Of a stretch of 48,103 bases of DNA, positions 7,380 through 46,091 are shown piece by piece. A model generated the notes under the pieces. The model saw nothing but the letters and a program-made list of their open reading frames with translations, searched no databases and was not told the DNA's origin. The first letter of the stretch is position 1; each line of letters opens with the position of its first letter. The stretch lies in contig JACRCP010000396.1 of NCBI GenBank assembly GCA_016218965.1, positions 1 to 48,103 on the forward strand. The letters are read 5' to 3'. Source of the DNA: Deltaproteobacteria bacterium (GTDB lineage: Bacteria; Myxococcota; SpSt-1050; JACRCP01). Both the position numbers and the translations under genes were made by a program.

Positions 7380-8717
7380 ATGAGAACCGCAGCGTTGTTC
7401 GTAGTGGCGTTGCTGCTGGCCTCCTGCGCGGGCGAGTCCGAGACCTCCACGGACGCCGGCTCGCGCGATTCCGGCGGAGCCGCCGAAGGGGACTCGGGAG
7501 GCGCGCCGGGGGCCTGCGCGCGTGACGACGACTGCCTCGCGTTCGAGACGTGCGTTGATGGACGTTGCGTGATTCCGGACGTGCCGGACGCGGGGACGCC
7601 TGATTCGTCCGACATGTCAGACACGTCGGACCAGTCCGACACGGGCGTGACGCCCGACACCAACGACGCCGGTTCGCTGGACGGTCCTGATCTGTCCGAT
7701 GTGTCCGACATGTCCGACGTGTCAGACCTGTCCGATGCCGCCGACGCGGGGTTTGACGCCGGCGGCACTGACGGCGGCACCGACGCCGGCCAGGGCACCT
7801 GCCCGGTCGGCGTGACGTGCGTCGATTCATTCCCGTTCGGCGACGACCGCGACACCTCGGCCGAGCCGCCTGGCACGTTCTCGTCGTACTCATGCAAGCC
7901 GACAGTCAACGAGGGCGGGCCGGAGGTGATCTACCGCGTCACCGTTCCGGAGGCGGGGTTCCTTTCGGCGGCCGTGTACGAGGAGAGCGGCGTGGACGTG
8001 GACGTCCACATCCTCTCGGAACTGAACCAGTCTAAGTGCATCGACCGCGGGAATTTCCACGCCCGCGCGGACGTCGAGGCGGGAGTCCACTGGGTCGTGA
8101 TAGACACGTACGTCAGCGGCGGAACTCCCCAGGCCGGGAAGTTCCATGTGGACATCGGCTTCTACGTCCCGTCACGCGGTTCGTGCGCCATGGAGACGGG
8201 CGAGATGCCTCGCGTGGGTGACGGCGGCAATCATCTTCAAATGCCGGCCACCGGGCCGATGGTCCTCGAGGCGCACCTTGTCACGCAGGAAGAGTCTTAT
8301 CGGCCCGCTTCCTCGACACAGCACCTGACCGAGCACTACGCCCTCTCGCAGACGGAGACGGGTTTCGTGATGTATCGCGAGGAGGTCTGGGCGCCGCTCG
8401 AGGGCGGGAGTTTTTACGGCGCGGGGATCGGTGATCCGTCCCTGTTCCCCGTTCTGCACGAGGGTTGGTACGTCAACATGTACTGGACCGCGGCCGCCCG
8501 CCCGTCCCGCGGGACGAGAATGATCCTCAAGGACCCGGATTCGTCCCATGCGGTCGTCGTGGCGGCCGGATACGAGACCGGCCCCGGTGATCTCTCGAAC
8601 ATCGGCGGGACGCCCGAAGAGACTCATTTCTTTTTGCGCACCGGCCACGAGAGCACCCTGACGCTCGGCATCGCGGCCGACCAGACCCTGCCTTACGGCC
8701 CGCGCGTGTGCGAGTAG
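7380..8717 (+). CDS. Lipoprotein with an N-terminal CxxDDDC motif and a (D-x-S-D)n low-complexity linker, unknown function
   Basis: Signal peptide with lipobox LLASC, then GACARDDDCLAFETCVDGRC, then SDMSDTSDQSD...LSDVSDMSDVSDLSD linker, then a ~300-aa globular domain. Confidence 0.65.
   Translation: MRTAALFVVALLLASCAGESETSTDAGSRDSGGAAEGDSGGAPGACARDDDCLAFETCVDGRCVIPDVPDAGTPDSSDMSDTSDQSDTGVTPDTNDAGSLDGPDLSDVSDMSDVSDLSDAADAGFDAGGTDGGTDAGQGTCPVGVTCVDSFPFGDDRDTSAEPPGTFSSYSCKPTVNEGGPEVIYRVTVPEAGFLSAAVYEESGVDVDVHILSELNQSKCIDRGNFHARADVEAGVHWVVIDTYVSGGTPQAGKFHVDIGFYVPSRGSCAMETGEMPRVGDGGNHLQMPATGPMVLEAHLVTQEESYRPASSTQHLTEHYALSQTETGFVMYREEVWAPLEGGSFYGAGIGDPSLFPVLHEGWYVNMYWTAAARPSRGTRMILKDPDSSHAVVVAAGYETGPGDLSNIGGTPEETHFFLRTGHESTLTLGIAADQTLPYGPRVCE
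7607..7740. repeat. Strand-symmetric TCCGAC/GTCGGA-rich tract encoding (D-x-S-D)n
   Basis: Imperfect hexanucleotide repeats gtccgacatgtcagacacgtcggaccagtccgacac and ctgtccgatgtgtccgacatgtccgacgtgtcagacctgtccgat. They read as SD repeats on both strands. Confidence 0.6.
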
Positions 8718-33115: not shown

Positions 33116-36100
33116 ATGACAAGTCCGAGCGTGACTCACCGCCCTGCTGTTGTTCGGACGGTGTCGTCCGGCGCGCTGAAAGCGCGGGAACTCTTGAGCC
33201 TGGGGCAACGCCCCAGGTACACGGGGCCGAAACCCGGCGAAGCCCTGAAGGGGCGAAACGTTCGAGTCAGCGGTTGCGATCCGACGAGTCTCGCCCTTTC
33301 AGGGCTCGCATCGCGATCCCAACCCCCACCCGGGGCGCTTCCCCGGGCTGAAGAATCTCGCGCCTTCAGCGCTCAGCCTCACCGTCCTCGCAGAAGAACC
33401 GCGGCGGGCGAACCCAGGACATTGAGCGGCCTTTTCCTGGCGGCTGCTGTGCTCTCCGCCCTTGCGGGCTGCGGCGGTCACGCCGGGGCGGCCGACGCCA
33501 AACAGGCGGGTGCCGACGCGGGCGGCGCGGGCGCCGCCGAGGAGGTTGCGCCGTTGAAGGTAATCAAGTGGACCGGGAAGTTCTCCGACGGCTGGAAGGA
33601 ATTCGACAAGCTCGCAAACGAGCAGAAGCACGAGAAGGCCTCGGAGCTTGTCGAAAAGATGCTCGAATCGGCCAAGTCGTCGAAAGACTCCGAGGAGTGG
33701 GTCCGCTGCCTCATCAAGTGGACGACCCTCCGTGTCGCGCTCCACGGGTACGAAACCTCCGTGCGCTTCCTGCGCGAACAGCCGTGGCCTGAAGACCTTC
33801 TGGGAAGCACGGTCCTGAACCTGTACTACGCGCGGACGCTCGTGACGTACGCCCACAGCTACTCGTGGGAGATCAACAAGCGCGAGCGCGTCGAGACGAA
33901 GGGCGTCGTGGACCTCAAGGCGTGGACCATGGACCAGATCTTTGCCGAGGCCCAGCGCGCGTACGAGGAGGTCTGGAAACACAGGGAACAGCTCGGCGAC
34001 CTGCCGGCAAAACACCTCTCGGAATACCTTGAACCCAACACGTATCCCGAGGGAATCCGGCCGACCCTCCGCGACGCCGTTTCGTACCTTCGCGTCGAGA
34101 TCCTCGCCGACACGCAGGGCTGGCGCCCCGAGCAGTCAAACGAGGTCTTCAGGCTCGATCTCAAAAACCTCCTGTCGGACGCTCCGGCCGCGAAAGACGG
34201 CAAGGTGTTCGACCTCGCCGACCCCGGTGTCCACCCGCTGGAAAAGATCGCCGCGATCCTTGCCGACCTCGAGCAATGGCACGCAAAAAAGGCCCGGAAG
34301 GAAGCGGCGTTCGAGGCACGACGGGAACGGCTGGAGAGACTCCACGCGAGTTTCACCGAAGACCAGGACCGCGCCCGAATCAAGCACGATCTCGAAAAAC
34401 GTCTGGGTGGCGTTTCGGGAAAACCCTGGTGGTCGATGGGGATGGCGACGCTTTCGACCTTCGTGCAGGCCGAAGACGCCTCCGACGCGCTGATACGCGC
34501 GCGCAAGATCGCCATCGAAGGCCGCGAGGCGTTTCCCGACTCGGTCGGCGGAAAGCGCTGCAATCACGTCGTCAAATCGATCGAGGCGCCGGACTACTCG
34601 CTTTCGGGCATGTCAAGCGACGGACCGAAGAAGCGATCGATCGAGGTGACGCACAAGAACCTCGGGGCACTGCACTTCCGGGCATACGCCGTGGACATCG
34701 TGAGACAGATAGAAACCGCCGACGACTACCGCATTTACCCCGGCTGGAAGGCGCTCCAGAAGATGGTCGAGTCGGGACGCCCGGCACACACATGGTCCGT
34801 CGAGCTTCCCGCGACACCCGACTACAGGATGCACGAAACGTTCGTGACGCCGCCAATGACCAAGTCCGGCTTGTACGTCGTCATGGCCTCGGCGCGGAAG
34901 GACTACGCGCAGGACGACAACAAGATCCTCGGACTCGACGTGGTCGTGACGGACCTCGTGATGGTGACCAGGCAGGAGGGCGGCGAGGTCGAGGTCACGG
35001 TACTTGACGGCCCGGCGGGGAAGCCGGTCCCGGGTGCCGAGGTGACTCTCTACAAATACGACTGGCGGAACAAGCACAAGTCGGTCGATTCCGAGACGAC
35101 CGATGCAAAAGGCGTGGTTCGGTTCTCGCGGAAATCGCAGGACGGTTCGTACTTCCTATTTGCAAAAAAAGGCGTTGAGGTCGCGTACGACCCGAACTAC
35201 CTGTATTTCTACCGCCAGCAGCCCGCGCCCGACCAGCACGCGACCCTCATCTTCACCGACCGGAGCATCTACCGGCCGATGCAAAAGCTCTTTTGGAAGG
35301 CCCTCGTCTATCACGGAAGGTACGACAGGGCGGACTACAAGATCGCTACTAACACCTCGGTGACGATCTCGCTCGTGGACCCGAACCACCAGACCGTCGA
35401 GACAAAGACCGTGACGACCAACGCCTACGGCACGGCGTCGGGCGAGTTCACGATCCCGACCGGACGCATCCTGGGCCAGTGGCACCTGCAAAGCTCGCTC
35501 AACGGGACCGCCTACGTCCGCGTCGAAGAGTACAAGCGCCCGACGTTCGAGTCGAAGTTTCTGGACCCCGCAAGCGCCCTCCGCCTCAACAAGCCCGCGA
35601 CTCTAAAGGGCGAGGCCCGGTACTACTTTGGTCTGCCGGTGACCAACGGCGCGGTCAAGTGGCGCGTCACGCGCGAGCCGGTCTATCCGTGGTGGTGGGG
35701 TTGGTACTGGTGGGCCGAATCCCGCCCGGCGGCCGCGAAGATCCAGACCGTGGCGACCGGCACGGCCGCGCTGAAGGAGGACGGCACGTTCACGTTCACC
35801 TTCACCCCCGAAGCCGACGAGCGCGGCGCCGAGTCGAAGCACCTGACCTTCCGGTACGCCGTCACCGCCGACGTCACCGACGAGGGCGGCGAGACGCGGT
35901 CCGCGTCAAAATCCTTCAGGCTGGGCTTCGTCTCCGTCGAGGCCGCAGTGAGGATGGAAACCGGGTTCCTGATGGAAGGGCAGACGGGCGATCTCACGGT
36001 GCTTCGGACGAATCTCGACGGCGTTCCCAAGGCCGGCAAAGGCGCGTGGAAGCTTCTGGCGACGAGCGGCCCCAAAGAGGCCCTCACGCCGGCCGAACAA

Positions 36101-39100
36101 CCGTTCCCGACGCTTCCGGGAAAAGAAAAGAAAAAGGAGTTCGCGACACCGGGCGACTCGATCCGGCCCCGTTGGAATTTCTCGTACACGCCCGAGGCCG
36201 TGATGCGCGCGTGGGAGGACGGCGGCGTCAAGGGGAGCGGCGAGGTTTCGCACAACGACAAGGGCGAAGGCAAGGTTGCCATCCCCGCGCTCTCGGCGGG
36301 CGTCTATCGCCTCAAGTACGAGACACAGGACGAGTTCGGCGCCAAGTTCGAGATGTCAAAGGAGTTCGTCGTCGGCGGCCGCCGGGCGAACATCGCCCTC
36401 CCCTCGCTCCTGCTCGTCGAGGAATCGTCGGTCAAGGTCGGCGGCACGGCGCGGATTCTCGCGCTTTCGGGCCTGCGCGACCAGTACATGGTGCTCGACG
36501 TCTACCGTGAAGGGAAGCGCGTGGATCGGCGGCAGCTCGAATCGGGCCGGGACTCGACGCTCATAGAGATACCCGTGACCGAGAAAGACCGCGGCGGTTT
36601 CGGCGTGACGCTCTCGGTCCTCCGCGACCACCAGTTCATGCACTCGTCGCAGACGGTGTTCGTCCCGTGGGACGACAAGGAGTTGAAGGTCGAGTTCTCG
36701 ACGTTTAGGGACAAGCTCCGCCCCGGGCAGAAGGAGAAGTGGACGGTGAAGCTTTCCGGCCCAGAGGGAAAGGACACTGCAGTCGCGGCGGCCGAGGTTC
36801 TTTCGTACCTGTACGACCGATCGCTTGACGCCTTCGTCCCGCACAGTCCGCCGAGCCCGCTGTCCATCTGGCCCCACCGCGCCTCGGTCGTCTGGGCGCG
36901 TGCGAACCTCGGGACGGCACACCAGGAGTGGATCGAGAGCCGCGGGTTCAAGCCGCTCCCCGGTTGGCCCGACCTCCATCCGGACCGCCTGAAATTCTAC
37001 GAAGGCTACGGGATCGGCGGGCCCGGGAGGCGAAGGTACTACAAGGGCGGCGGCGCACCGGAAGGCGCGGCCATGCGCAAGTCGATGCCCATGAAGGCAA
37101 TGGCCCGGATGGATCGCGACGAGGCCGAAATGAAGGCCGAAGAGGCCAGGCCGCCCGCTGCGCCGGCCGCGCAGGCCCCGATGGAGGCCGCCGACAAGGC
37201 CGTGGCTACGTCGGAGACGAAACAAAAGGCCGGCGACGGGAGGGACCGCCGCGAACCCGAGGCGCCGGTGCAGATGCGCGCCGATTTTTCGGAGACCGCG
37301 TACTTTTTGCCGCACCTCATCACGGGCGCCGACGGCACGGCGTCAATCGAGTTCTCGGTACCCGATTCGGTCACCTCGTGGAACGTCTGGGTCCACGCGG
37401 TCACAAAGGACCTAAAATCCGGCTCGACGACAAAAGAGGCCAAAACCGTCAAAGACCTCATGGTCCGCCCGTACATCCCGCGCTTCCTGCGCGAGGGGGA
37501 CAAGGCCGAGATCAAGGTCGTCGTCAACAACGCCTCGGACAAGGAGATCAAGGGACATCTCGCATTCGACATCATCGACCCGTCTACAGAGAAGAGCGTG
37601 CTCGAGTCCTTCGGCCTGCGGCCAGAGGACACGAAGAAGCTCCCGTTCACCGTTCCGGCAGGCGGCGGAACAAACCTCGGTTTCTCGCTCGCGACACCTG
37701 CGAAGGTCGGCCTGATAGCATTCAAGGTCACCGCCGTGTCGGGCGATGTGTCCGACGGCGAGCTTCGGCCTATTCCGGTGCTCCCCGGGCGGATGCACCT
37801 TGCGCAGTCCCGGTTCGTGACGCTTCGGGGCAAGGGCCAGAGGGTCATGAAGTTCGCCGATCTTGAAAAGGCCGACGACTCGACGCTGATTAACGAACAG
37901 ATGGTCGTGACGCTCGACGCGCAACTCTTCTACTCGGTGCTCTCGGCACTCCCCTACCTCGTGAACTACCCGTACGAGTGCACCGAGCAGACGCTCAACC
38001 GCTTCGTCTCGACCGGGATACTCTCTTCGATGTACGCGAAGTACCCCGCCATCGAAAAGATGGCAAAGGAGTTCTCGACCCGGAAGACCGAGTTCGAGCA
38101 GTGGGACCAGCCTGATCCCAACAGGAAGATGGCGCTCGAGGAGACGCCGTGGCTCCGGATGGCCAAGGGCGGGACGCACGACTACGACGATCTCGTAAAC
38201 GTCCTCGACCCGCGGATCACCCGCGCCCAGCGCGACGCGTCGCTCGCGAAACTGCGCAAGGCGCAGACCAGCTCCGGCGGCTTCCCGTGGTTCCCCGGCG
38301 GCCCGCCGTCGCCGTGGATGACCGTCTACATGCTCTACGGCTTCTCGAAGGCCCTCGAGTTCGGCGTGGACGTCCCCAAGGACATGGTCCAGCGCGCGTG
38401 GTCGTACGTGCACCGGTACTACATTGACGAGATCGTACGCGACATGATCCGCCACGACTGCTGCTGGGAGACCGTCACGTTCATCAACTACGTGCTCTCG
38501 AACTATCCGGATTCGAGCTGGACCGGAGGCGTCTTCTCGGACGACGAGCGCCAGAAGATGCTGCTGTTCTCGTTTGGCAAGTGGAAGAAGCACTCGCCGT
38601 ATCTCAAGGGGTATCTCGCGCTTACGCTCAAGAGGATGAAGCGCGAGAAGGACGCGCGCCTCGTGTGGGAGTCGGTCCTCGATTCGGCAAAGGAGAAGGA
38701 GGACCAGGGGACGTTCTGGGCGCCAGAGGACCGCGGCTGGCTCTGGTACAACGACACGATCGAAACACATGCGTTTGCGATCAGGACGACCATGGAGCTG
38801 ATGCCCGAGGAGCCGAAGCTCGACGGGATGGTGCTCTGGATCTTCCTTAACAAGAAACTCAACCACTGGAAATCCACGCGCGCCACGGCCGAGGTGGTCT
38901 ATTCGCTTGCGCACTACCTCAAGAAGACCGACCAGCTCGGCGTGCGCGAGGACGCGGCGGTGACGTTAAACGGCGAGACGACGCGGTTCGTTTTTGAGCC
39001 CGACAAGTACACCGGGAAGAAGAACCAGATCGTCGTACCGGGCGAGAAAGTTGACCCGAAGCGCACATCGACGATCACGGTCGAAAAGGACAGCAAAGGC

Positions 39101-39607
39101 TATCTCTTCGCCTCGGCGACGTGGCACTTCTCGACCGAGAAGCTGCCCGAGGAAGACCGCGGCGACTACCTTGCCGTCTCGCGACAGTTCTTCAGGAGGG
39201 TCAACACCGGCCGCGAGTTCGTCTTGCAGCCGCTCAAGGACGGGACAGCGCTTTCTCCCGGCGACGAGGTCGAGGTCCACATATCGCTCCGCTCAAAGCA
39301 CCAGATGGAGTACGTTCACCTGCGCGACCCGAGGGGCGCCGGTTTCGAGCCCGAAGGCGCCGTGAGCAGGCACAAGTGGGAGCTGGGCATCTACTGGTAC
39401 GAGGAGTACCGCGACTCCGGGACCAACTTCTTCTTCGAAAGACTCCCGCAGGGCGAGTACACGTTCAAGTACCGGATAAGGGCCGCGACGGCAGGCACCT
39501 TCAAGGTCGCGCCGGCGACCGTGCAACCGATGTACGCGCCGGAGTTCAACGCGTACAGCGCGGGAGCGGTGGTGAAGATCAGTTCGTCGGAGGAAAAGGC
39601 GAAGTAG
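33116..39607 (+). CDS. Bacterial alpha-2-macroglobulin family protein (YfhM/ECAM-like) with an intact thioester motif
   Basis: ~2160-aa ORF. The thioester signature YPYECTEQ (CxEQ) lies at ~37960-37985 within LVNYPYECTEQTLNRFV. MG-domain-like repeats precede it. A lipoprotein-type signal (LSGLFLAAAVLSALAGC) lies ~102 codons inside the ORF at the TTG at 33422. The ATG at 33116 has a strong GAGGAGG RBS but encodes a 100-aa Arg/Pro-rich extension, so the true start is uncertain. Confidence 0.85.
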   Translation: MTSPSVTHRPAVVRTVSSGALKARELLSLGQRPRYTGPKPGEALKGRNVRVSGCDPTSLALSGLASRSQPPPGALPRAEESRAFSAQPHRPRRRTAAGEPRTLSGLFLAAAVLSALAGCGGHAGAADAKQAGADAGGAGAAEEVAPLKVIKWTGKFSDGWKEFDKLANEQKHEKASELVEKMLESAKSSKDSEEWVRCLIKWTTLRVALHGYETSVRFLREQPWPEDLLGSTVLNLYYARTLVTYAHSYSWEINKRERVETKGVVDLKAWTMDQIFAEAQRAYEEVWKHREQLGDLPAKHLSEYLEPNTYPEGIRPTLRDAVSYLRVEILADTQGWRPEQSNEVFRLDLKNLLSDAPAAKDGKVFDLADPGVHPLEKIAAILADLEQWHAKKARKEAAFEARRERLERLHASFTEDQDRARIKHDLEKRLGGVSGKPWWSMGMATLSTFVQAEDASDALIRARKIAIEGREAFPDSVGGKRCNHVVKSIEAPDYSLSGMSSDGPKKRSIEVTHKNLGALHFRAYAVDIVRQIETADDYRIYPGWKALQKMVESGRPAHTWSVELPATPDYRMHETFVTPPMTKSGLYVVMASARKDYAQDDNKILGLDVVVTDLVMVTRQEGGEVEVTVLDGPAGKPVPGAEVTLYKYDWRNKHKSVDSETTDAKGVVRFSRKSQDGSYFLFAKKGVEVAYDPNYLYFYRQQPAPDQHATLIFTDRSIYRPMQKLFWKALVYHGRYDRADYKIATNTSVTISLVDPNHQTVETKTVTTNAYGTASGEFTIPTGRILGQWHLQSSLNGTAYVRVEEYKRPTFESKFLDPASALRLNKPATLKGEARYYFGLPVTNGAVKWRVTREPVYPWWWGWYWWAESRPAAAKIQTVATGTAALKEDGTFTFTFTPEADERGAESKHLTFRYAVTADVTDEGGETRSASKSFRLGFVSVEAAVRMETGFLMEGQTGDLTVLRTNLDGVPKAGKGAWKLLATSGPKEALTPAEQPFPTLPGKEKKKEFATPGDSIRPRWNFSYTPEAVMRAWEDGGVKGSGEVSHNDKGEGKVAIPALSAGVYRLKYETQDEFGAKFEMSKEFVVGGRRANIALPSLLLVEESSVKVGGTARILALSGLRDQYMVLDVYREGKRVDRRQLESGRDSTLIEIPVTEKDRGGFGVTLSVLRDHQFMHSSQTVFVPWDDKELKVEFSTFRDKLRPGQKEKWTVKLSGPEGKDTAVAAAEVLSYLYDRSLDAFVPHSPPSPLSIWPHRASVVWARANLGTAHQEWIESRGFKPLPGWPDLHPDRLKFYEGYGIGGPGRRRYYKGGGAPEGAAMRKSMPMKAMARMDRDEAEMKAEEARPPAAPAAQAPMEAADKAVATSETKQKAGDGRDRREPEAPVQMRADFSETAYFLPHLITGADGTASIEFSVPDSVTSWNVWVHAVTKDLKSGSTTKEAKTVKDLMVRPYIPRFLREGDKAEIKVVVNNASDKEIKGHLAFDIIDPSTEKSVLESFGLRPEDTKKLPFTVPAGGGTNLGFSLATPAKVGLIAFKVTAVSGDVSDGELRPIPVLPGRMHLAQSRFVTLRGKGQRVMKFADLEKADDSTLINEQMVVTLDAQLFYSVLSALPYLVNYPYECTEQTLNRFVSTGILSSMYAKYPAIEKMAKEFSTRKTEFEQWDQPDPNRKMALEETPWLRMAKGGTHDYDDLVNVLDPRITRAQRDASLAKLRKAQTSSGGFPWFPGGPPSPWMTVYMLYGFSKALEFGVDVPKDMVQRAWSYVHRYYIDEIVRDMIRHDCCWETVTFINYVLSNYPDSSWTGGVFSDDERQKMLLFSFGKWKKHSPYLKGYLALTLKRMKREKDARLVWESVLDSAKEKEDQGTFWAPEDRGWLWYNDTIETHAFAIRTTMELMPEEPKLDGMVLWIFLNKKLNHWKSTRATAEVVYSLAHYLKKTDQLGVREDAAVTLNGETTRFVFEPDKYTGKKNQIVVPGEKVDPKRTSTITVEKDSKGYLFASATWHFSTEKLPEEDRGDYLAVSRQFFRRVNTGREFVLQPLKDGTALSPGDEVEVHISLRSKHQMEYVHLRDPRGAGFEPEGAVSRHKWELGIYWYEEYRDSGTNFFFERLPQGEYTFKYRIRAATAGTFKVAPATVQPMYAPEFNAYSAGAVVKISSSEEKAK

Positions 39608-39799: not shown

Positions 39800-40252
39800 A
39801 TGGCACTGATGCTCTCGCGTGCAAAGAGGACCATCGGCGCGTTCATCTTCTCGCTTCTCATGTACACCTTCCCGTCACTCGGCGGCGGCTGCAACGTGGC
39901 CGAAGAAAAGGACGGCGGGGCGGAGGTGTTGCCCGCGGAAGATGCCGGTTCGTCAGACGCCGGCCCGTTGGACTACGGTTCTTCGGAAGCGGGTTACGGT
40001 CCGCCTTCCTGCACGACCGACGACGACTGCCGATCTCCCGAAGACCAGACTGCAGTCGCGTACTGCGATCAAGCGCGAGGCTGGTGCGAATACATCTTCT
40101 CGTGCGATTCGGATTCGGAGTGCCAAGAACACTTTGGAGAGTCCTTTTTCTGCGACCCCAAAAAAAAGCAATGCGTTTCCGGGCAAACAGACTTTGACGG
40201 CGGCTTCGACCCCGACGCGGACGCCACCCCCGATGCGGGCACCGCCGATTAG
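39800..40252 (+). CDS. Cys-rich secreted or lipoprotein-like protein, paralog A of the shared 45-aa leader family
   Basis: GGAGGG RBS. MALMLSRAKRTIGAFIFSLLMYTFPSLGGGCNVAEEKDGGAE is almost identical to the N-terminus of the 41072 gene. The mature part has CTTDDDC...C...C units (8 Cys). Confidence 0.7.
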   Translation: MALMLSRAKRTIGAFIFSLLMYTFPSLGGGCNVAEEKDGGAEVLPAEDAGSSDAGPLDYGSSEAGYGPPSCTTDDDCRSPEDQTAVAYCDQARGWCEYIFSCDSDSECQEHFGESFFCDPKKKQCVSGQTDFDGGFDPDADATPDAGTAD

Positions 40253-40297
40253 ACCGACGTGCGATGTCCTGAAGTTCGGCGGTTTGACGGCGCGCGC

Positions 40298-40630
40298 CTA
40301 CGCCCTTGTCAACCGTTCCAGCAGGACATCACCCAGGTTCCTCCTACTATCGAGAACGGCCGACACGTAGACCGTGCCGCCCACAACCTCGTATATGATT
40401 CTCCATGGCGCGACGATCAACTCCCGGAAACCTGTCAGCCCGACCAGCTCCAATTCCGGCACCCTGCGTCCACGGAACGGAGACATGTCGAGCGTCCGAA
40501 ATCTGGCCTCGATCGTGTCCATGATTCGCGCGGCTGTTTCGCGCGATTCCCGCTCGATGTAACGGCCTATCGACTCGAGGTCCTCCCTCGCCAAAGGAGA
40601 AGTGCTGACCTCGAATCTACGACCGCTCAT
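40298..40630 (-). CDS. RelE/ParE-family toxin
   Basis: 110 aa with the ParE/RelE fold signature (PFRGRRVPELELVGLTGFRELIV...YEVV). Overlaps the upstream antitoxin gene by 14 nt. Confidence 0.75.
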   Translation of the reverse strand: MSGRRFEVSTSPLAREDLESIGRYIERESRETAARIMDTIEARFRTLDMSPFRGRRVPELELVGLTGFRELIVAPWRIIYEVVGGTVYVSAVLDSRRNLGDVLLERLTRA

Positions 40631-40907
40631 CTCTCGCCTTCTTCATCGCGGCCCGCACGCGGGCAAATACCTGGTCCGTGGTTTCACCGCGGCCTTCCCG
40701 AAATTCCCTGTCGCTTTGCGCGATGATCTTGAGCATCGCCAGCGTTTCCTGCCAGCGGTCCCAGGTCGCGACGTCCATCAAGACGGCCTTGGCCTCGCCG
40801 TTCTGCGTGATGACCATCTGGCCGCCGGTCTCGACCACCTCTCGCACAACGTCCGCCGTGTGGTTCTTGAGATACGTGATGGGTTTGATCGCTTTAGCAA
40901 GCCGCAT
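40617..40907 (-). CDS. Phd/YefM-family antitoxin
   Basis: 96 aa with the YefM-like N-terminal region (KPITYLKNHTADVVREVVETGGQMVITQNGEAKAVLM). Confidence 0.75.
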   Translation of the reverse strand: MRLAKAIKPITYLKNHTADVVREVVETGGQMVITQNGEAKAVLMDVATWDRWQETLAMLKIIAQSDREFREGRGETTDQVFARVRAAMKKARDERS

Positions 40908-40976
40908 GTTTCACCTCCTGACATGTCCGAATTTAGCACCTTTTAAGGACCGCAACAACAGGATCGTTTTTGGCCT

Positions 40977-41021
40977 GCGGCAGCAAGCTGCCGCGAACGC
41001 AAAGCGCAAGCATGCTTGCGC
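40977..41021. repeat. Double-palindrome element (GCGGCAGCAAGCTGCCGC-N9-GCGCAAGCATGCTTGCGC), second copy of the element at 4434-4475
   Basis: Two perfect 18-bp palindromes. The first is identical to 4434-4451 and the second differs by 1 nt from 4458-4475. It lies in the divergent region between the Phd/YefM start and the Cys-rich gene, 17 nt upstream of a TATAAT (41039-41044). Confidence 0.55.
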
Positions 41022-41071
41022 ACCCCACCCGACCGGCGTATAATGTGCCTGCACCGGGCAAGGAGGGAAAC

Positions 41072-41818
41072 ATGGCGCTCATCATCACGCGGGCCAAAAG
41101 GACCATCGGCGCGTTCATCTTCTCGCTTCTGCTGTACATCTTCCCGTCACTTGGCGGCGGGTGCAACGTGGCCGACGAGAAGGACGGCGGGGCCGAGATG
41201 TCGGACGTGTCCCCCGGCGGGGACGACGCTGTTTTGGCGGATGGCAGCACCTCGCCCGACGGCGGCTCGGAGGACTTTGGAAACACCTGTGGCGCCTACG
41301 GACCTCCCCCCTGCGAGTCCGACGAGGACTGCGCCGCGTACGGCGACGGCTACTACTGCGACAAGGATCATCAGATCAACATGTGCGGCGAGACGACCAC
41401 GTGGCCAACCTGCAAGGGAGGCGTTGTCACGAGCGACGCCGGCCCGCAGGACGCAGGCTACGAGGACTACGGGAACACCTGCGCCGCGTACGGCCCGCGG
41501 CCGTGCGACACCGACCAGGATTGCCGCGACTGGAACGACGCCGGCAACTGGGTCTGCGACAAGGACCATGTCGCGGGCTACTGCAACGGAGAACCGATGA
41601 CGTGGCCGACCTGCATCGAGACCGCCGATGCGGACGCAGGCTACGCCGACTTCGGAACGCCCTGCGCCGCGTACGGTCCCCAGCCGGCGCCCTGCGAGAC
41701 CGATGCTGAATGCGTTGCGCAGAACGGCGCGGGGTGGTACTGCGACAAAGATTTCGTCATTGACGTCTGCGGAACGCTGACGACCCAGCCGACGTGCGTT
41801 CCCGGCGGGGACAAATAA
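41072..41818 (+). CDS. Cys-rich secreted or lipoprotein-like protein with three ~55-aa six-Cys repeats, paralog B of the shared leader family
   Basis: AAGGAGGG RBS. The leader MALIITRAKRTIGAFIFSLLLYIFPSLGGGCNVADEKDGGAE, then three repeats of G-N/T-T/P-C-x-AYGP-x-PC-x-[ST]D-x-[DE]C...CDKD-x6-C-x8-C. Confidence 0.75.
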   Translation: MALIITRAKRTIGAFIFSLLLYIFPSLGGGCNVADEKDGGAEMSDVSPGGDDAVLADGSTSPDGGSEDFGNTCGAYGPPPCESDEDCAAYGDGYYCDKDHQINMCGETTTWPTCKGGVVTSDAGPQDAGYEDYGNTCAAYGPRPCDTDQDCRDWNDAGNWVCDKDHVAGYCNGEPMTWPTCIETADADAGYADFGTPCAAYGPQPAPCETDAECVAQNGAGWYCDKDFVIDVCGTLTTQPTCVPGGDK

Positions 41819-41837: not shown

Positions 41838-41904
41838 GATGCTGGATGCTAGATGCTAGATGGCGCAGATCGAAATCCAGCATCCAACGTCCGGCATCCA
41901 GCAT
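41838..41904 (+). promoter_or_regulatory. Tandem GATGCT(G/A)GATGCTAGATG repeats paired with a downstream inverted copy (ATCCAGCATCC...GGCATCCAGCATCC), forming an extended stem-loop spanning the annotated rSAM start
   Basis: Direct and inverted repeats seen in sequence. A regulatory role is inferred. Confidence 0.35.
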
Positions 41905-42992
41905 CCGCTGTGCCGCGCACCGCATCTGACGCATTCCGACACTTTGCCGCGAAGCACCCGCTCGGGTACCTCTACCTCGAGATCACGCGCCGATGTAACC
42001 TCAAGTGCGTCTACTGCGGAAGCTCCTGCGGCCCGAAGACGCTCCCCGAGGAGATGCCGGTCGCTCGCTGGGTCGCGGTGCTCGAACAGATTGCTGCCGA
42101 CTTCGATTCGAAGAAGATCATGCTCGCCATCACGGGCGGCGAGCCGCTTCTCAAGCCCGACGTGTTCGACCTCTTCGGCGCGGCAAAAAGGCTGGGTTTT
42201 CCATTTGGGATGGTCACAAACGCGACGCTCATCGACGACAAGATGGCCGAACGACTCGCCGGATGCGGGATTGGGTCAATCTCGCTCTCGTTCGACGCCC
42301 CGCCGGAGGTGAACGACTCGCTCCGCGGGAAGGGGATCTCGGAGCGGGTTGCGCGCGCCGCGAAAGCACTTCAGGATGCCGGTTACCGCGGCAAGCTCGA
42401 GATCATGACGACGTTTACGAAACCCGTCACGCCGCACTTGGACGCCCTTCGCAAGTACATCTCCCAACTCCGGGTCGGCCTCTGGCGGATTGTCCCCGTT
42501 ATGCCCATAGGTCAGGCGGCGACGCGGCCCGACCTCCTACCGGACTGCGAGGACTTCAAGACCCTTCTCAAGTTCGTCGAGACCGCGCGCAAAGACGGCT
42601 TGCGCCCGGCGCCCGAGCTTGGAGAGGAGGGGTTTTTGGGCGACCCCTACGAGACCGAAAAGTCCGTCCGCCCGTACAAGTTCCTCTGCCGCGCGGGTCT
42701 CACCATCGCGGGCATCTCGTACGACGGGAAGATCGGCGCCTGCCCCGAGCTGACTCCCGCGTTCACACAGGGCCACGTGGACCGGGACCGTTTCAAGGAC
42801 GTGTGGGAGACGAGATACGAAGTCTTCCGCAAACGGGACTGGACGCGGGTCGGCCAATGCCACAGTTGCAGGTCGTTCGACCGTTGCCTCGGCGGCAGCA
42901 TGCACCTCTACGAAAAACCCGGCGACGCCACCTGCCGGTGCCTTTTTGAAATGATCGGAGGAGACCGGACGACCGCGGGCCGCACGTCGTAG
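41853..42992 (+). CDS. Radical SAM/SPASM-domain enzyme (anSME/peptide-maturase-like) downstream of the Cys-rich repeat gene
   Basis: RRCNLKCVYC CxxxCxxC, TGGEPLL, and a C-terminal SPASM-like CHSCRSFDRC plus further Cys. The start could instead be the GTG at 41910 just after the stem-loop. Confidence 0.8.
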   Translation: MLDGADRNPASNVRHPASAVPRTASDAFRHFAAKHPLGYLYLEITRRCNLKCVYCGSSCGPKTLPEEMPVARWVAVLEQIAADFDSKKIMLAITGGEPLLKPDVFDLFGAAKRLGFPFGMVTNATLIDDKMAERLAGCGIGSISLSFDAPPEVNDSLRGKGISERVARAAKALQDAGYRGKLEIMTTFTKPVTPHLDALRKYISQLRVGLWRIVPVMPIGQAATRPDLLPDCEDFKTLLKFVETARKDGLRPAPELGEEGFLGDPYETEKSVRPYKFLCRAGLTIAGISYDGKIGACPELTPAFTQGHVDRDRFKDVWETRYEVFRKRDWTRVGQCHSCRSFDRCLGGSMHLYEKPGDATCRCLFEMIGGDRTTAGRTS

Positions 42993-43104: not shown

Positions 43105-43488
43105 TCAGTCGGAGTTCATTGGCACGGCGGTGTCCGGCAACTTGCGCACGCGGTGCCTGCCGGGTTCGACGACGATGAATGATCTCAGGAGATCGTCCTG
43201 TGAGTGATGGCTGAAAACAGCAGTCAATTCGTCGTGAACGGCTTCCAGCGTACCGGGCGACACCCGCAGGTAGATCACTCCCCCTCTCCGGCCCCCCAAA
43301 AAAACCAGCGAACCGAAGTCCCTGTCTCGCGTTACCACAACCCGGCCTTCGGCGGCGCCCTTCTTAAGGATGGCCTCGTCAGCGGCAAGATGCACTTGCA
43401 GCCGCGCCACCGTCACAACGTCGTGCCCGAGACTCAGAAGATGCCGAACAGTGGCCGCATAGACGTCCTGATCGACAAGAAGTCTCAT
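43105..43488 (-). CDS. DUF5615-type (Mut7-C/PIN-like) putative toxin
   Basis: MRLLVDQDV...VVTRDRDFGSL pattern typical of the PIN-like partner of DUF433 proteins. Confidence 0.6.
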   Translation of the reverse strand: MRLLVDQDVYAATVRHLLSLGHDVVTVARLQVHLAADEAILKKGAAEGRVVVTRDRDFGSLVFLGGRRGGVIYLRVSPGTLEAVHDELTAVFSHHSQDDLLRSFIVVEPGRHRVRKLPDTAVPMNSD

Positions 43489-43724
43489 GCCGGGGGCGCC
43501 GGGGTGGAAACGTGCAGCTCTTCGGCGTCAAGAACGTCGATCGCGTATTGCACGCACGCGCGGATGTCATCCTCGGAGATATCAGGATAGTAGTCGCGGA
43601 CGATCCGCTCAAAAGGGACGCTCTCCCTGACCAGCTCCAGCACGTCGTGAACGGGAATTCGCGTTCCCGCAACGCAGGGCTTTCCGAAATGTACTTTCGG
43701 GTCGACTTCGATTCTCTCCTTCAT
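43485..43724 (-). CDS. DUF433-family small protein (antitoxin-like partner)
   Basis: Internal ATG at 43724 with GGGAGG RBS. Conserved GKPCVAGTRIPV motif. 4-nt overlap with the DUF5615 gene. Confidence 0.65.
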   Translation of the reverse strand: MKERIEVDPKVHFGKPCVAGTRIPVHDVLELVRESVPFERIVRDYYPDISEDDIRACVQYAIDVLDAEELHVSTPAPPA

Positions 43725-44109
43725 CGCGCCTACCTCCCGGTCTACGACCAGCACCATTATGCATTCCGCCGGCGGGATCGTCAATGGACCAAGCACAACG
43801 GAAGGTTAGCCGTTTCGATGAAGTGGGCCCCGGCCGCGGCGTTCGACCCTCGCGGGCTGCTTGTCGCAGCCGGGGTGCGGACTCTTCGGCCCGGCGTCTG
43901 CCGGCCCGGGAGAAGGGCCAGGACGGCCTCGGCTCGCCCACGGCGCGATAAGATCCCAGGGTAGCCGCTGCAACACGCGACCCCCGTGGGGTCGTCCGTC
44001 ACCGGCCATTCGGAATGTGCAGAACGTTCCTTCCTTCCCGTTCGTCGTCCGACGCTTCTGCCGGAATGCCCCACGGGGGCATCGTATTGAAGCCCGGGGT
44101 TGCCGCAGG

Positions 44110-44397
44110 CTACCCCGGGATCGCGGAAAAAGAAAACACATCATACAACCCTGAAGGGGTTGCGTCCTTCTTTTCGTACAAGTCCAGCGCCGCCTCCTCC
44201 CACTCCGCCTCCGTCGGCAATCGCTTCCCCGCCCATGCGCAGTACGCCTTGCTTTGGTTCCAGTCCACGCAGTTGATCGGGTGGCTGTCCCTCCCCGAAA
44301 CGCCGTAGTTGCAGTAGGTGCCTGGACGGCCCAGCGGTACGTGGCACCGTCGTGTTCGCACCGTCGTGTTCAGCACCAAGCTCAGGGCCTCGGACAA
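44110..44397 (-). pseudogene. Fragment of a formylglycine-generating-enzyme/sulfatase-modifying-factor (FGE/SUMF1) domain gene
   Basis: Only ~95 aa, containing the central FGE signature [39 protein letters not shown]. The N- and C-terminal thirds of the ~250-aa domain are missing, and it overlaps the aminotransferase 3' end. Confidence 0.5.
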
Positions 44398-45578
44398 AGT
44401 CCTCGGCCGCTCAGCGCCGCTTTAACTCCGCGGACCGCCTGGCGGATCCGGTGCTCGTTTTCGACGAGGGCGAACCTGACGTAGCCTTCGCCGTGCTCGC
44501 CGAAACCCACGCCGGGCGAAACGGCGACCTTTCCCTTCTGCAAGAGCAGTTTGGAGAACCCGACGGAACCCATCGGCCGGAACGCCTCGGGGATCGGCGC
44601 CCAGACGAACATCGTCCCTTTGGGCTTCGGGAAATCCCAGCCGATCCGCGAAAGTCCGTTCACAAGGCAGTCCCGGCGCTTCCGGTAGACCTCGCGGACC
44701 TCGTCAACGGCCCTGTACGGCCCGTTGAGCGCGACGGTCGCGGCGATCTGGATTGCCTGGAACATCCCGTAGTCGAGGTAGCTCTTGAGGCGCGTGAGCG
44801 CATGGACCAGCCGGCCATTGCCGACGACGAAACCGACCCGCCATCCGGGCATCGAGTAGCCCTTGGACATCGAGTACAGCTCGACCGCGACGTCTTTGGC
44901 GCCGGGTACCTGGAGGATCGAAGGCGCCCTGTACCCGTCGAAGACGATGTCGCCGTACGCGTTGTCGTGCACGAGAAGGAGCCTGTGCTCGCGCGCGAAC
45001 TCGACCGCCCTCTTGAAGAAGTCGAGGTCCACCACCTCGGTGGTGGGGTTGTGCGGAAACGAGATGATCATCATCTTGGGCGCCGGCCAAAGCGATTTCA
45101 CGGCGCGCTCGGCCCGCTCGAGGAAGTCCCCGGCGCCCGGGACGAGCGGGATCGAGCGCACGTCGGCGCCGGCGATCACCACGGAATAGGTGTGGATTGG
45201 ATAGGTCGGGTTGGGCACGAGCGCTATGTCGCCCTGTCCCATCACCGCGAGCACGAGGTGCGAAAGCCCCTCCTTGGCTCCGATGACGGCGACAGCTTCG
45301 GTTTCGGGGTCGAGATCGACGCCGTAACGCCGGTGATACCAGTTGCAGATCGCCAGCCGGAGCTTGGGGATTCCCCGGGAAGCCGAGTAACGGTGATTCC
45401 GCGGCTTGCGCGCCGCCTCGATGAGCTTTTCGACTATGTGCGGCGGAGTCGCGATGTCGGGGTTTCCCATCCCGAGATCGACGATGTCCTCGCCGGCCCG
45501 CCGCATCCGGGTCTTGAGGTCCGAGACGACCGCCAGGATATACGGCGGCAGCCGCGCTATGCGCGGAAACTCTTCCAT
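44382..45578 (-). CDS. Class I/II pyridoxal-phosphate aminotransferase (aspartate/alanine/LL-DAP aminotransferase-like)
   Basis: 398 aa. PLP-lysine region [17 protein letters not shown]-terminal LGMGNPD and NPTYP motifs. Confidence 0.85.
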
Positions 45579-45590
45579 GTGTCTCGTCGA

Positions 45591-46091
45591 CTACGGTCCC
45601 GTGCAGTTCCCGCCGAGACAGGTCGTTTCGCATGTGCCCGTTGTCCCGCACGTGAACGTGCAGTTCCCGCCCGGGCAGTCCGTCTGGCAGTTGGCCGCGC
45701 CTGTGCATTCCGACTTGCAGTTCCCGCCGTTGCAGTTGAGATCGCAGGTCGCATTTTCGCCGCATTTCAGCCGACAGTTGCCGCCCTTGCAGTCGAAGTC
45801 ACACGTCACCGAACCCTTGCACTCGTAGTCGCAGTTGCCGCCGAAACAGTCCGCATTGCAGTCGGACGCGGACACGCAACTGTCGCAGTTGCCCAGCTCA
45901 CACAATGCCTCGCAGTTTTCTTCGGCGCACGAGCCGCCGCCACCACCGCCGCCGTCGTCACCGCCTCCCCCGCCGGTATCGCCGCCGCCACCGCCGGGTC
46001 CCGCATCGGTCCCGTCGTCAGTCGACGTGCAACTGACGAAGGTCGCGGGCGCCAAAAGACAAACCGCCAAGATCCCGATGAAAAGCCGCAT
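45591..46091 (-). CDS. Cys-rich lipoprotein with about 10 tandem C-x-GGNC-x3-C units (beta-helix-like), unknown function
   Basis: ATG at 46091 with AAGGAGGG RBS. Lipobox ATFVSC, a poly-Gly/Asp linker, then repeats such as CFGGNCDYEC, CKGGNCRLKC, CNGGNCKSEC, CPGGNCTFTC, CLGGNC. Ends 12 nt upstream of the aminotransferase start. Confidence 0.65.
   Translation of the reverse strand: MRLFIGILAVCLLAPATFVSCTSTDDGTDAGPGGGGGDTGGGGGDDGGGGGGGSCAEENCEALCELGNCDSCVSASDCNADCFGGNCDYECKGSVTCDFDCKGGNCRLKCGENATCDLNCNGGNCKSECTGAANCQTDCPGGNCTFTCGTTGTCETTCLGGNCTGP

Follow-up and report, generated by a model that had tools for sequence, protein, structure and literature searches.

Characterized radical S-adenosylmethionine (rSAM)/SPASM enzymes nearly all act on short leader-core peptides, which raises the question of what such an enzyme does where its gene stands directly behind that of a whole lipoprotein, the putative substrate. 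The case considered here comes from a deltaproteobacterial genome (Myxococcota; assembly GCA_016218965.1), and the stretch of DNA that was analyzed, hereafter the window, is the complete contig JACRCP010000396.1 (48,103 bp; locus tags HY897_246xx; G+C ∼64%). Two of its genes, A and B, encode Cys-rich proteins with almost the same N-terminus, and an rSAM/SPASM gene starts (41853) 34 nt past the end of gene B, an adjacency pointed out in a first-pass annotation and borne out by Pfam matches to both Radical_SAM and SPASM. That annotation took the 45-aa N-terminus for the leader of a RiPP (a peptide that is synthesized ribosomally and then modified post-translationally) of protein size; in such a model it would guide the enzyme to a hypervariable Cys core for the formation of thioether or other Cys cross-links. 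The analysis described below gives a different answer. Gene B and the rSAM gene downstream of it are a conserved two-gene module, and the element common to all of the partners of this enzyme family is neither the leader nor the Cys core, but the short motif Y-G-P-x-P. Some form of radical-SAM modification of a ribosomally made protein is still the best reading, and it is probable, on balance, that the enzyme performs a motif-directed, Tyr-centered modification of the exported YGPxP lipoprotein in the cytoplasm before export. The features concerned are these.

39800-40252, +: gene A, the smaller paralog, an acidic lipoprotein of 150 aa in which a single YGP motif is accompanied by two truncated Cys units (open reading frame with Shine-Dalgarno sequence GGAGGG)
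39800-39892, +: predicted signal peptide of A with lipobox (…FPSLGGG-C31), passed by a PROSITE-type lipobox regular expression
39995-40003, +: the single Y66-G-P motif of A (GYGPPSC)
41072-41818, +: gene B, the putative rSAM substrate, an acidic lipoprotein of 248 aa that contains three YGP + 6-Cys modules
41072-41164, +: predicted signal peptide of B with lipobox (…FPSLGGG-C31), passed by the same expression
41288-41413, +: module 1 of B (C73…C114), with Y76-G-P at 41297-41305, defined by a repeat hidden Markov model and invariant columns
41480-41614, +: module 2 of B (C137…C181), with Y140-G-P at 41489-41497
41663-41797, +: module 3 of B (C198…C242), with Y201-G-P at 41672-41680
41853-42992, +: radical-SAM/SPASM enzyme of a TIGR04133-like clade (PF04055, 2.6e-23; PF13186, 1.4e-7)
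41994-42017, +: rSAM cluster motif C48-x3-C52-x2-C55, invariant in 34 homologs
42687-42941, +: SPASM auxiliary-cluster region, C279-x12-G-x4-C297 … C336-x2-C339-x5-C345-LGGS … C363, from invariant columns and direct reading

Conservation of the gene pair

Homologs of B number 42, and those with source labels come from metagenome-assembled genomes (MAGs) of the Myxococcota type. They hold one to five copies of a unit of ∼47 aa with six Cys residues (consensus CEPVALYGPPPCTSDEDCVQRYGAGWYCDKENTVEDGCGGTVTWPVC), and no Pfam or NCBIfam model matches this unit or the A and B proteins themselves. A B-like gene is followed directly by an rSAM gene in five of the six other contigs examined, the B ortholog P0002 (contig L002), for example, by a 75%-identical rSAM. 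Further examples are the four distant B homologs (30–38% identical) on long contigs, all of which have this arrangement, where the flanking genes are unrelated and where one of the gene pairs overlaps by 4 nt, and nine further B homologs are on contigs exactly equal in size to those of rSAM homologs.

In two unrelated contigs (L002, 334-897, and L164, 278-841) the A/B-type gene is itself preceded by a gene of 187 aa that has no Pfam match and is absent from the window. The product in L002 has a lipobox (…LASGC), and this arrangement may be conserved synteny.

The YGPxP motif in the partner proteins

Metagenomes were scanned with a 34-member alignment of the rSAM family, which yielded 80 loci, 65 of them with at least 400 bp of upstream sequence. 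The partner was defined as a same-strand upstream open reading frame (ORF) with at least two YG[PVMI] motifs, and such an ORF is present in 56 of the 65 loci, separated from the rSAM match by a median gap of about 95 nt. Each partner has 2–10 copies of the motif, in which Y-G is followed by P (80%), V (12%), M (4%), or I (3%). The partners contain 2.02 motifs per 100 aa, compared with 0.037 for the remaining ORFs of 150 aa or more from those loci. The negative control was a set of 80 loci around unrelated rSAM/SPASM genes, 22–42% identical to the window enzyme and obtained by a single-sequence contig scan, and a YG-motif partner ORF was found in none of the 80. Pairs like those of the rSAM family TIGR04133 (see below) were also absent from the four control loci that were inspected.

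The candidate site is sharply defined. Tyr occupies the first position of xGPxP in 188 of 192 occurrences, with Phe and Trp never seen there, and Gly occupies the second position of YxPxP in 188 of 188. Over 29 members of the B family, the Y, G, and P of each of the three repeats do not vary. The local consensus is (D/E)-E-P-(V/A)-(A/V)-(Y/L)-Y-G-P-x-P-(V/C)-D, and a 15-mer peptide, DEEPMAYYGPAPVDA, is offered as a candidate rSAM substrate.

Outside the motif the bodies of the partners are unrelated. Some are acidic repeats, some are Gly-rich proteins of the T-G-G kind, and some have ‘CCG…DGS’ modules; others, of ∼100 aa, carry two or three LYG(P/V)xP motifs along with a signal peptide and, at the C-terminus, a membrane anchor. 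An upstream gene with a 6-Cys unit was found in only 24 of the 80 loci, and in 28 of the 56 partners (Cys-free ones occur, for example, in L084 and L095) Cys is entirely missing downstream of the first YG motif, unlike what is seen in sactipeptide and ranthipeptide systems. A thioether or other Cys-directed mechanism was rejected on this last ground as the common reaction, and the earlier description of a hypervariable Cys-rich core fails for the same reason and also because the bodies are moderately conserved. The N-termini of the partners are no more uniform, with at least six unrelated types of signal peptide, some of only 17 aa, so the proposal that the leader defines an rSAM-associated family is not supported. 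By all-against-all clustering of neighboring ORFs, the partner gene is the sole conserved neighbor, and neither a protease nor an exporter is conserved.

In three partners (L134, L136, and L149), whose rSAM homologs are 46–48% identical, the YGP motifs alternate with a ‘CCG-x-DDGS…C…Y…C’ module of about 35–45 aa, and because this module is a different one, it appears that a second, independent type of Cys domain has been recruited into the YGP/rSAM system. The partner ORF of another rSAM homolog in the same range of identity (L137) has LYG(V/M)P motifs instead of YGP.

The rSAM/SPASM enzyme

The window enzyme scores 83.5 bits with PF04055 (Radical_SAM; gathering score 29.5) and 32.2 bits with PF13186 (SPASM; 21.5). 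It has no signal peptide and is predicted to be cytoplasmic. The family comprises at least 326 proteins at E ≤ 1e-30, of which the 120 listed are 51–90% identical, and the clade is found in MAGs labeled Myxococcota, Polyangia, and Vicinamibacteria. Six of the seven Cys residues of the SPASM motif, CX9-15GX4C…CX2CX5CX3C…C, are present. The fourth Cys of CX2CX5CX3C is replaced by Ser (residues 336–363, 42858-42941), which points to an auxiliary cluster in which one ligand is open or is not Cys. The residues G347, G348, and H351 (GG-x2-H) are invariant in the 34 homologs, as is an additional Cys, C59 (CGSxC), just past the SAM-cluster motif. The enzyme matches only Radical_SAM and SPASM, and a domain of the RiPP recognition element (RRE)/PqqD type was found neither in it nor as a conserved neighbor. 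With the CxxxCxxC motif at residues 48–55, only 47 residues precede it, and this leaves no room for an N-terminal RRE. The true start of the protein is uncertain, since its first 22 residues are not conserved in the 75%-identical homolog. A tandem ATGCTAG-ATGCTAG duplication (41846-41859, +) spans the listed ATG.

Among 73 NCBIfam families the best match of the enzyme is TIGR04133 (‘rSAM_w_lipo’; 259.5 bits, 3.9e-77, model positions 15–340 of 350), whose cut-off of 425 is not reached, and the next are MftC, TIGR04053, AhbD, and NirJ. From the name and description of the model we take TIGR04133 to be an rSAM encoded next to a lipoprotein gene, presumably the ‘rSAM/lipoprotein system’ of Haft. 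Like TIGR04133, the window enzyme has rSAM and SPASM domains in about 350–380 aa, lacks an RRE, and adjoins a lipoprotein gene. In contrast, the partner in the window system is a multi-module Cys-rich lipoprotein of 150–250 aa that belongs to no curated family: A, B, and five other partners gave no lipoprotein-model match at E ≤ 0.01 to 1, and TIGR04134, presumably the companion of TIGR04133, was not confirmed in the library. The more distant members of the 80-locus set reach 327–373 bits on TIGR04133 and still stand behind genes for small YGP-bearing exported proteins (for example the L162 partner, MSKQ…LVGCRKPATKYGPPTSKYGPPPVTS…), and therefore the Myxococcota clade grades into TIGR04133. 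By the curated threshold the window enzyme is placed in a separate clade that is the nearest relative of TIGR04133, and is not a member of it. The system can be regarded as a variant of the function-unknown rSAM/lipoprotein pairing, and this provides a sharper hypothesis than the RiPP reading; the YGP motif is also a route by which a function might be assigned to ‘rSAM/lipoprotein’ families of the TIGR04133 type.

Relationships to enzymes of known function are more remote. MftC (TIGR03962) is the best-scoring characterized peptide-modifying relative, at 112 bits and up to 149 bits for relatives in the clade, with a cut-off of 265. The model of the anaerobic sulfatase-maturating enzymes (anSME), TIGR03942, is not among the top matches of the window enzyme, and a relative scores 67 bits against its cut-off of 349. 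None of the families of three-residue cyclophane-forming enzymes (3-CyFE; XyeB, GrrM, and FxsB) is among the 25 best NCBIfam matches, and the similarity to PapB and SkfB is at the level of the generic superfamily. The closest sequence matches in the PDB are SkfB (3.6e-10) and PqqE (1e-7), and there is no close solved structure. With scores below the cut-offs or no top match, assignment of the window enzyme to anSME, MftC, PapB/SkfB, or a known 3-CyFE was rejected. No description of a YGP lipoprotein/rSAM system was found in the literature searched.

The 6-Cys modules

The bodies of A (9 Cys; mature pI about 4.05) and B (19 Cys) had been described as unrelated. This does not hold, as residues from about 48 to 91 of A (DYGSSEAGYGPPSCTTDDDC...YCD) align with each of the three repeats of B, and in the A body a single YGP motif precedes two incomplete copies of the C-x2-D-x-[DE]-C…[YF]CD…C unit. 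A and B therefore appear to be paralogous, acidic, exported lipoproteins. In an AlphaFold2 (AF2) model of B, built from a 29-sequence alignment, the C2–C6 segment of each module is a small domain of one short helix and four short strands with a predicted local distance difference test (pLDDT) score of about 85–95, and the C1-x-A-Y-G-P stretch and the linkers have a pLDDT below 50. The C2–C6 domain weakly resembles cystine-dense mini-proteins. The model is consistent with a 6-Cys module that is a disulfide-stabilized extracytoplasmic mini-domain, with YGP in a flexible segment on the N-terminal side of each, and the module is optional because half of the partners do without Cys after their first motif. 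The possibility had been raised that the Cys bodies are a known disulfide-rich domain with no relation to rSAM chemistry. They do look like disulfide modules that the rSAM does not need, and no curated family of that kind matches them. The YGP motif and the ∼47-aa 6-Cys mini-domain are two protein elements defined here that are uncurated.

A further claim was that the CTTDDDC of A recurs as CARDDDC in the lipoprotein encoded at 7380. The two strings are there as stated. A meaningful relationship between them was rejected, as the similarity of the proteins is negligible (E = 0.005 in a single pairwise comparison). The 7380 lipoprotein (445 aa; 7380-8717) ends in …TLPYGPRVCE (8694-8717, +), with one YGP-x-x-C at its extreme C-terminus, and this occurrence of YGP is probably coincidental.

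The shared N-terminus

The near-identical leader of A and B, from which the RiPP reading originated, is confirmed. Both proteins begin MAL(M/I)(L/I)(S/T)RAKRTIGAFIFSLL(M/L)Y(T/I)FPSLGGGCNVA(E/D)EKDGGAE, with identity at 36 of 42 residues and 110 of 126 nt (87.3%, against ∼85% in the earlier account). The DNA similarity starts at a common Shine-Dalgarno sequence, GGAGGGA, the preceding 60 nt being identical at only 25 positions, and it stops at codon 42, with 46 identities in the following 126 nt. Sixteen codons of the block differ, and because 10 of these differences are synonymous (six are non-synonymous), the identity is best explained by purifying selection on a block that is old enough to have acquired silent changes. 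The same synonymous divergence rules out very recent gene conversion as the sole cause.

The apparent secretion or lipidation signal noted earlier is also upheld, since LGGGC fits the lipobox rule, which was applied as a regular expression equivalent to PROSITE PS51257 and calls for a basic n-region and a hydrophobic h-region ahead of a lipobox whose Cys lies no farther in than about residue 35. The match is to residues 21–31 of both A and B, with RAKR as the n-region, and residues 3–27 of B are predicted as a single helix in the AF2 model. Counted to the lipobox Cys, 31 of the 42 shared residues would then make up a Sec/lipoprotein signal peptide, and the remaining 11 would begin the mature protein. 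A phmmer search with full-length A against 1.84 billion cluster representatives returned only seven proteins. The small A-like proteins P0164–P0166 have the leader of A, a G-x-YGPP-x-C motif, and a canonical L-S-G-C lipobox, and the four closest relatives of B (P0002–P0005) have an L-[ST]-G-G-C lipobox. The other lipoproteins in the window have short, ordinary signal peptides, such as MRTAALFVVALLLASC at 7380, and the ‘RAKRT’ leader is restricted to A and B. The alternative that the leader is simply a generic signal peptide of this genome is therefore not what was found, yet it does seem to be a lipoprotein signal peptide, a long one that is specific to a small clade of Myxococcota.

Could the shared N-terminus be a mere leftover of a tandem duplication or gene conversion, split by a ParE/Phd toxin-antitoxin cassette and only incidentally next to the rSAM gene? 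A and B are the sole carriers of the leader in the window, a mobile toxin-antitoxin pair does lie between them, and the similarity begins exactly at the ribosome binding site. Against this, 10 of the 36 codons for identical amino acids differ synonymously while the adjacent sequence is at background divergence, orthologs and A-like proteins from other metagenomes retain the leader, and the rSAM adjacency recurs in many unrelated contigs at 30–75% protein identity, which are not near-identical strains. This explanation is very improbable and is largely refuted by the cross-contig conservation.

The leader-guided RiPP deserves more weight. Conservation is higher in its leader than in the body, whether the paralogs (36/42 versus about 40–50%) or the orthologs are compared, the synonymous divergence shows that the leader is under selection, and the rSAM is adjacent and conserved. 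In addition, the C-x2-D-x-[DE]-C of the module recalls the substrates in which PapB and QhpD form Cys-Asp/Glu thioethers. However, the leaders differ completely between partner subfamilies, down to ordinary 17-aa lipoprotein signals, in half of the partners no Cys that could serve as a core follows the first motif, the recognition domain, protease, and exporter expected of such a pathway are missing from the conserved neighborhood, and the model predicts, with confidence, that each Cys module folds autonomously as a mini-domain, in bodies that are moderately conserved. What survives of the RiPP-like reading is the conserved link between a ribosomal protein and radical-SAM modification, while a leader-guided, Cys-core mechanism is now improbable.

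Proposed mechanism

The partner is exported and the enzyme is cytoplasmic, so the two could meet only in the cytoplasm prior to export. That the modification is directed by the motif is suggested by its being short, Tyr/Gly-strict, and repeated at variable distances from the N-terminus in otherwise unrelated sequence. In the favored mechanism the rSAM would recognize YGPxP itself, with no leader or RRE, in the way that anSME recognizes CxPxR, and would carry out a Tyr-centered, Cys-independent modification at each motif of the unfolded precursor in the cytoplasm. Sec export and lipidation would come after the modification, and the 6-Cys mini-domains would fold after export. A would be a second substrate, with its one motif acted on in trans. 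We infer all of this: the lipoprotein as the substrate, YGP as the site, the timing before export, and the chemistry.

The working analogy is with anSME/AtsB. An anSME has ∼370 aa, rSAM and SPASM domains, and no RRE; it works in the cytoplasm, where it modifies an internal (C/S)-x-(P/A)-x-R in full-length proteins before their export by Sec. The window system would be similar in the recognition of a short motif in an exported protein before export, and it differs in the motif, Y-G-P-x-P with up to 10 repeats, and in the target, a non-enzymatic lipoprotein. MftC carries out Tyr-centered radical chemistry on a Gly-Val-Tyr peptide and needs both the RRE protein MftB and a C-terminal Tyr, whereas the Tyr of YGP lies within the chain and recurs, and the conserved neighborhood includes nothing like MftB. 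In Cys-rich peptides or in a small protein subunit, Cys is joined to Asp/Glu or to Cα by QhpD/QhpC, PapB, CteB, and SkfB, which are of the rSAM/SPASM or Twitch type, and the C-x2-D-x-[DE]-C of B has a superficial likeness to their substrates.

As for the chemistry, the precursors of triceptides contain repeated Ω1-X2-X3 motifs in which an aromatic-to-Cβ cross-link is formed (PMC11499958). The Y-G-(P/V/M/I) of the partners fits Ω1-X2-X3, with an sp3 Cβ at X3, and is likewise independent of Cys. Triceptide precursors are short leader-core peptides, and their enzymes have an RRE and are accompanied by proteases or exporters, in contrast to the window system, which has no RRE, conserved protease, or conserved exporter and whose strict Tyr-only and Gly-only positions are atypical of triceptides. 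Because of the fit to Ω1-X2-X3 and the Tyr-centered chemistry of MftC, a Tyr cross-link is, by analogy, the leading guess, although weakly held; it might, for example, be a three-residue cyclophane of the aromatic-to-Cβ type on Y-G-P. It is conceivable, although as a tentative idea, that an undescribed Tyr-specific cross-link or other modification (e.g., a Tyr-to-Pro cyclophane) is made at every YGPxP, leaderless and on structural envelope proteins, by a system that is widespread in Myxococcota and related to the ‘rSAM/lipoprotein’ family of Bacteroidota.

Several points weigh against motif-directed modification. A cross-linked precursor must still pass through Sec. The enzyme falls below the cut-off of TIGR04133, which is itself only a ‘hypothetical equivalog’. 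A purely motif-directed model leaves the strong conservation of the signal peptide unexplained (mean column identity of 85% versus 62% for the whole protein in the alignment of B orthologs); as a speculation, long conserved signal peptides may delay or time export so that the cytoplasmic enzyme acts first. A B ortholog (P0003 in L001) and an A-like protein (P0165 in L163) have no adjacent rSAM, and extra paralogs may therefore be served in trans. Lastly, the tetrapyrrole-modifying AhbD and NirJ are among the top families after TIGR04133, so a non-peptide substrate is possible.

The last two points also feed a different explanation, in which the lipoprotein is not the substrate at all: the rSAM would act on a small molecule, a cofactor, or another protein, and the YGP lipoprotein would be expressed along with it, as an envelope component that, for instance, binds or carries the product, or simply as a structural surface protein retained in the same operon. 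Apart from MftC, the nearest families are indeed the tetrapyrrole enzymes and unknowns like TIGR04053, the enzyme has no recognition domain, and some lipoproteins of the family stand without an rSAM. Yet a Tyr/Gly-strict motif of five residues, repeated in unrelated and mostly disordered acidic proteins, is typical of the site of an enzyme rather than of a ligand-binding fold, the cytoplasm before export is the only compartment that enzyme and partner have in common, and the intergenic gaps are tight, to the extent of the 4-nt overlap mentioned above. A non-substrate role of the lipoprotein is accordingly rated as unlikely, if less so than a leader-guided RiPP, and motif-directed modification is preferred. 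The YGP/rSAM pair is a common and compact two-gene system, and a new post-translational modification of bacterial surface proteins may emerge from it.

Locus layout and genomic context

The order of genes is alpha-2-macroglobulin lipoprotein, gene A, ParE/Phd, gene B, the rSAM/SPASM gene, and a DUF5615/DUF433 pair. The features around the A, B, and rSAM genes are the following.

33116-39607, +: alpha-2-macroglobulin lipoprotein of 2163 aa (bMG3, MG2, bait region, A2M, and bMG10 domains; lipobox LAGC)
40298-40630, −: ParE/RelE-family toxin (PF05016, 7e-16; TIGR02385)
40617-40907, −: Phd/YefM antitoxin (PF02604, 8e-19; TIGR01552)
43105-43796, −: DUF5615 (PIN-like)/DUF433 pair of the toxin-antitoxin type

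The domain matches at 40298-40907 (−) agree with the earlier statement that A and B flank a ParE-Phd module, and its position suggests insertion into a former tandem duplicate. With the DUF5615/DUF433 pair on the other side, the B-rSAM operon is bracketed by two pairs of the toxin-antitoxin type. The alpha-2-macroglobulin gene stops 190 nt 5′ of gene A, and its listed start codon is doubtful, as a long Pro/Arg-rich N-terminal extension precedes the signal sequence.

Farther downstream, a 95-aa ORF (44110-44397, −) matches PF03781 (FGE-sulfatase, SUMF1-like) at positions 78–122 of 255 only (6.8e-15), and it seems to be the remnant of a truncated gene, up against that of the aminotransferase at 44382-45578 (−). 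A lipoprotein of 166 aa (45591-46091, −; …FVSC) has no YGP motif and no Pfam or NCBIfam match, and with its Gly-rich linker and many short Cys repeats of the ‘C-x-GGNC’ type it is a Cys-rich lipoprotein family separate from A/B within the contig.

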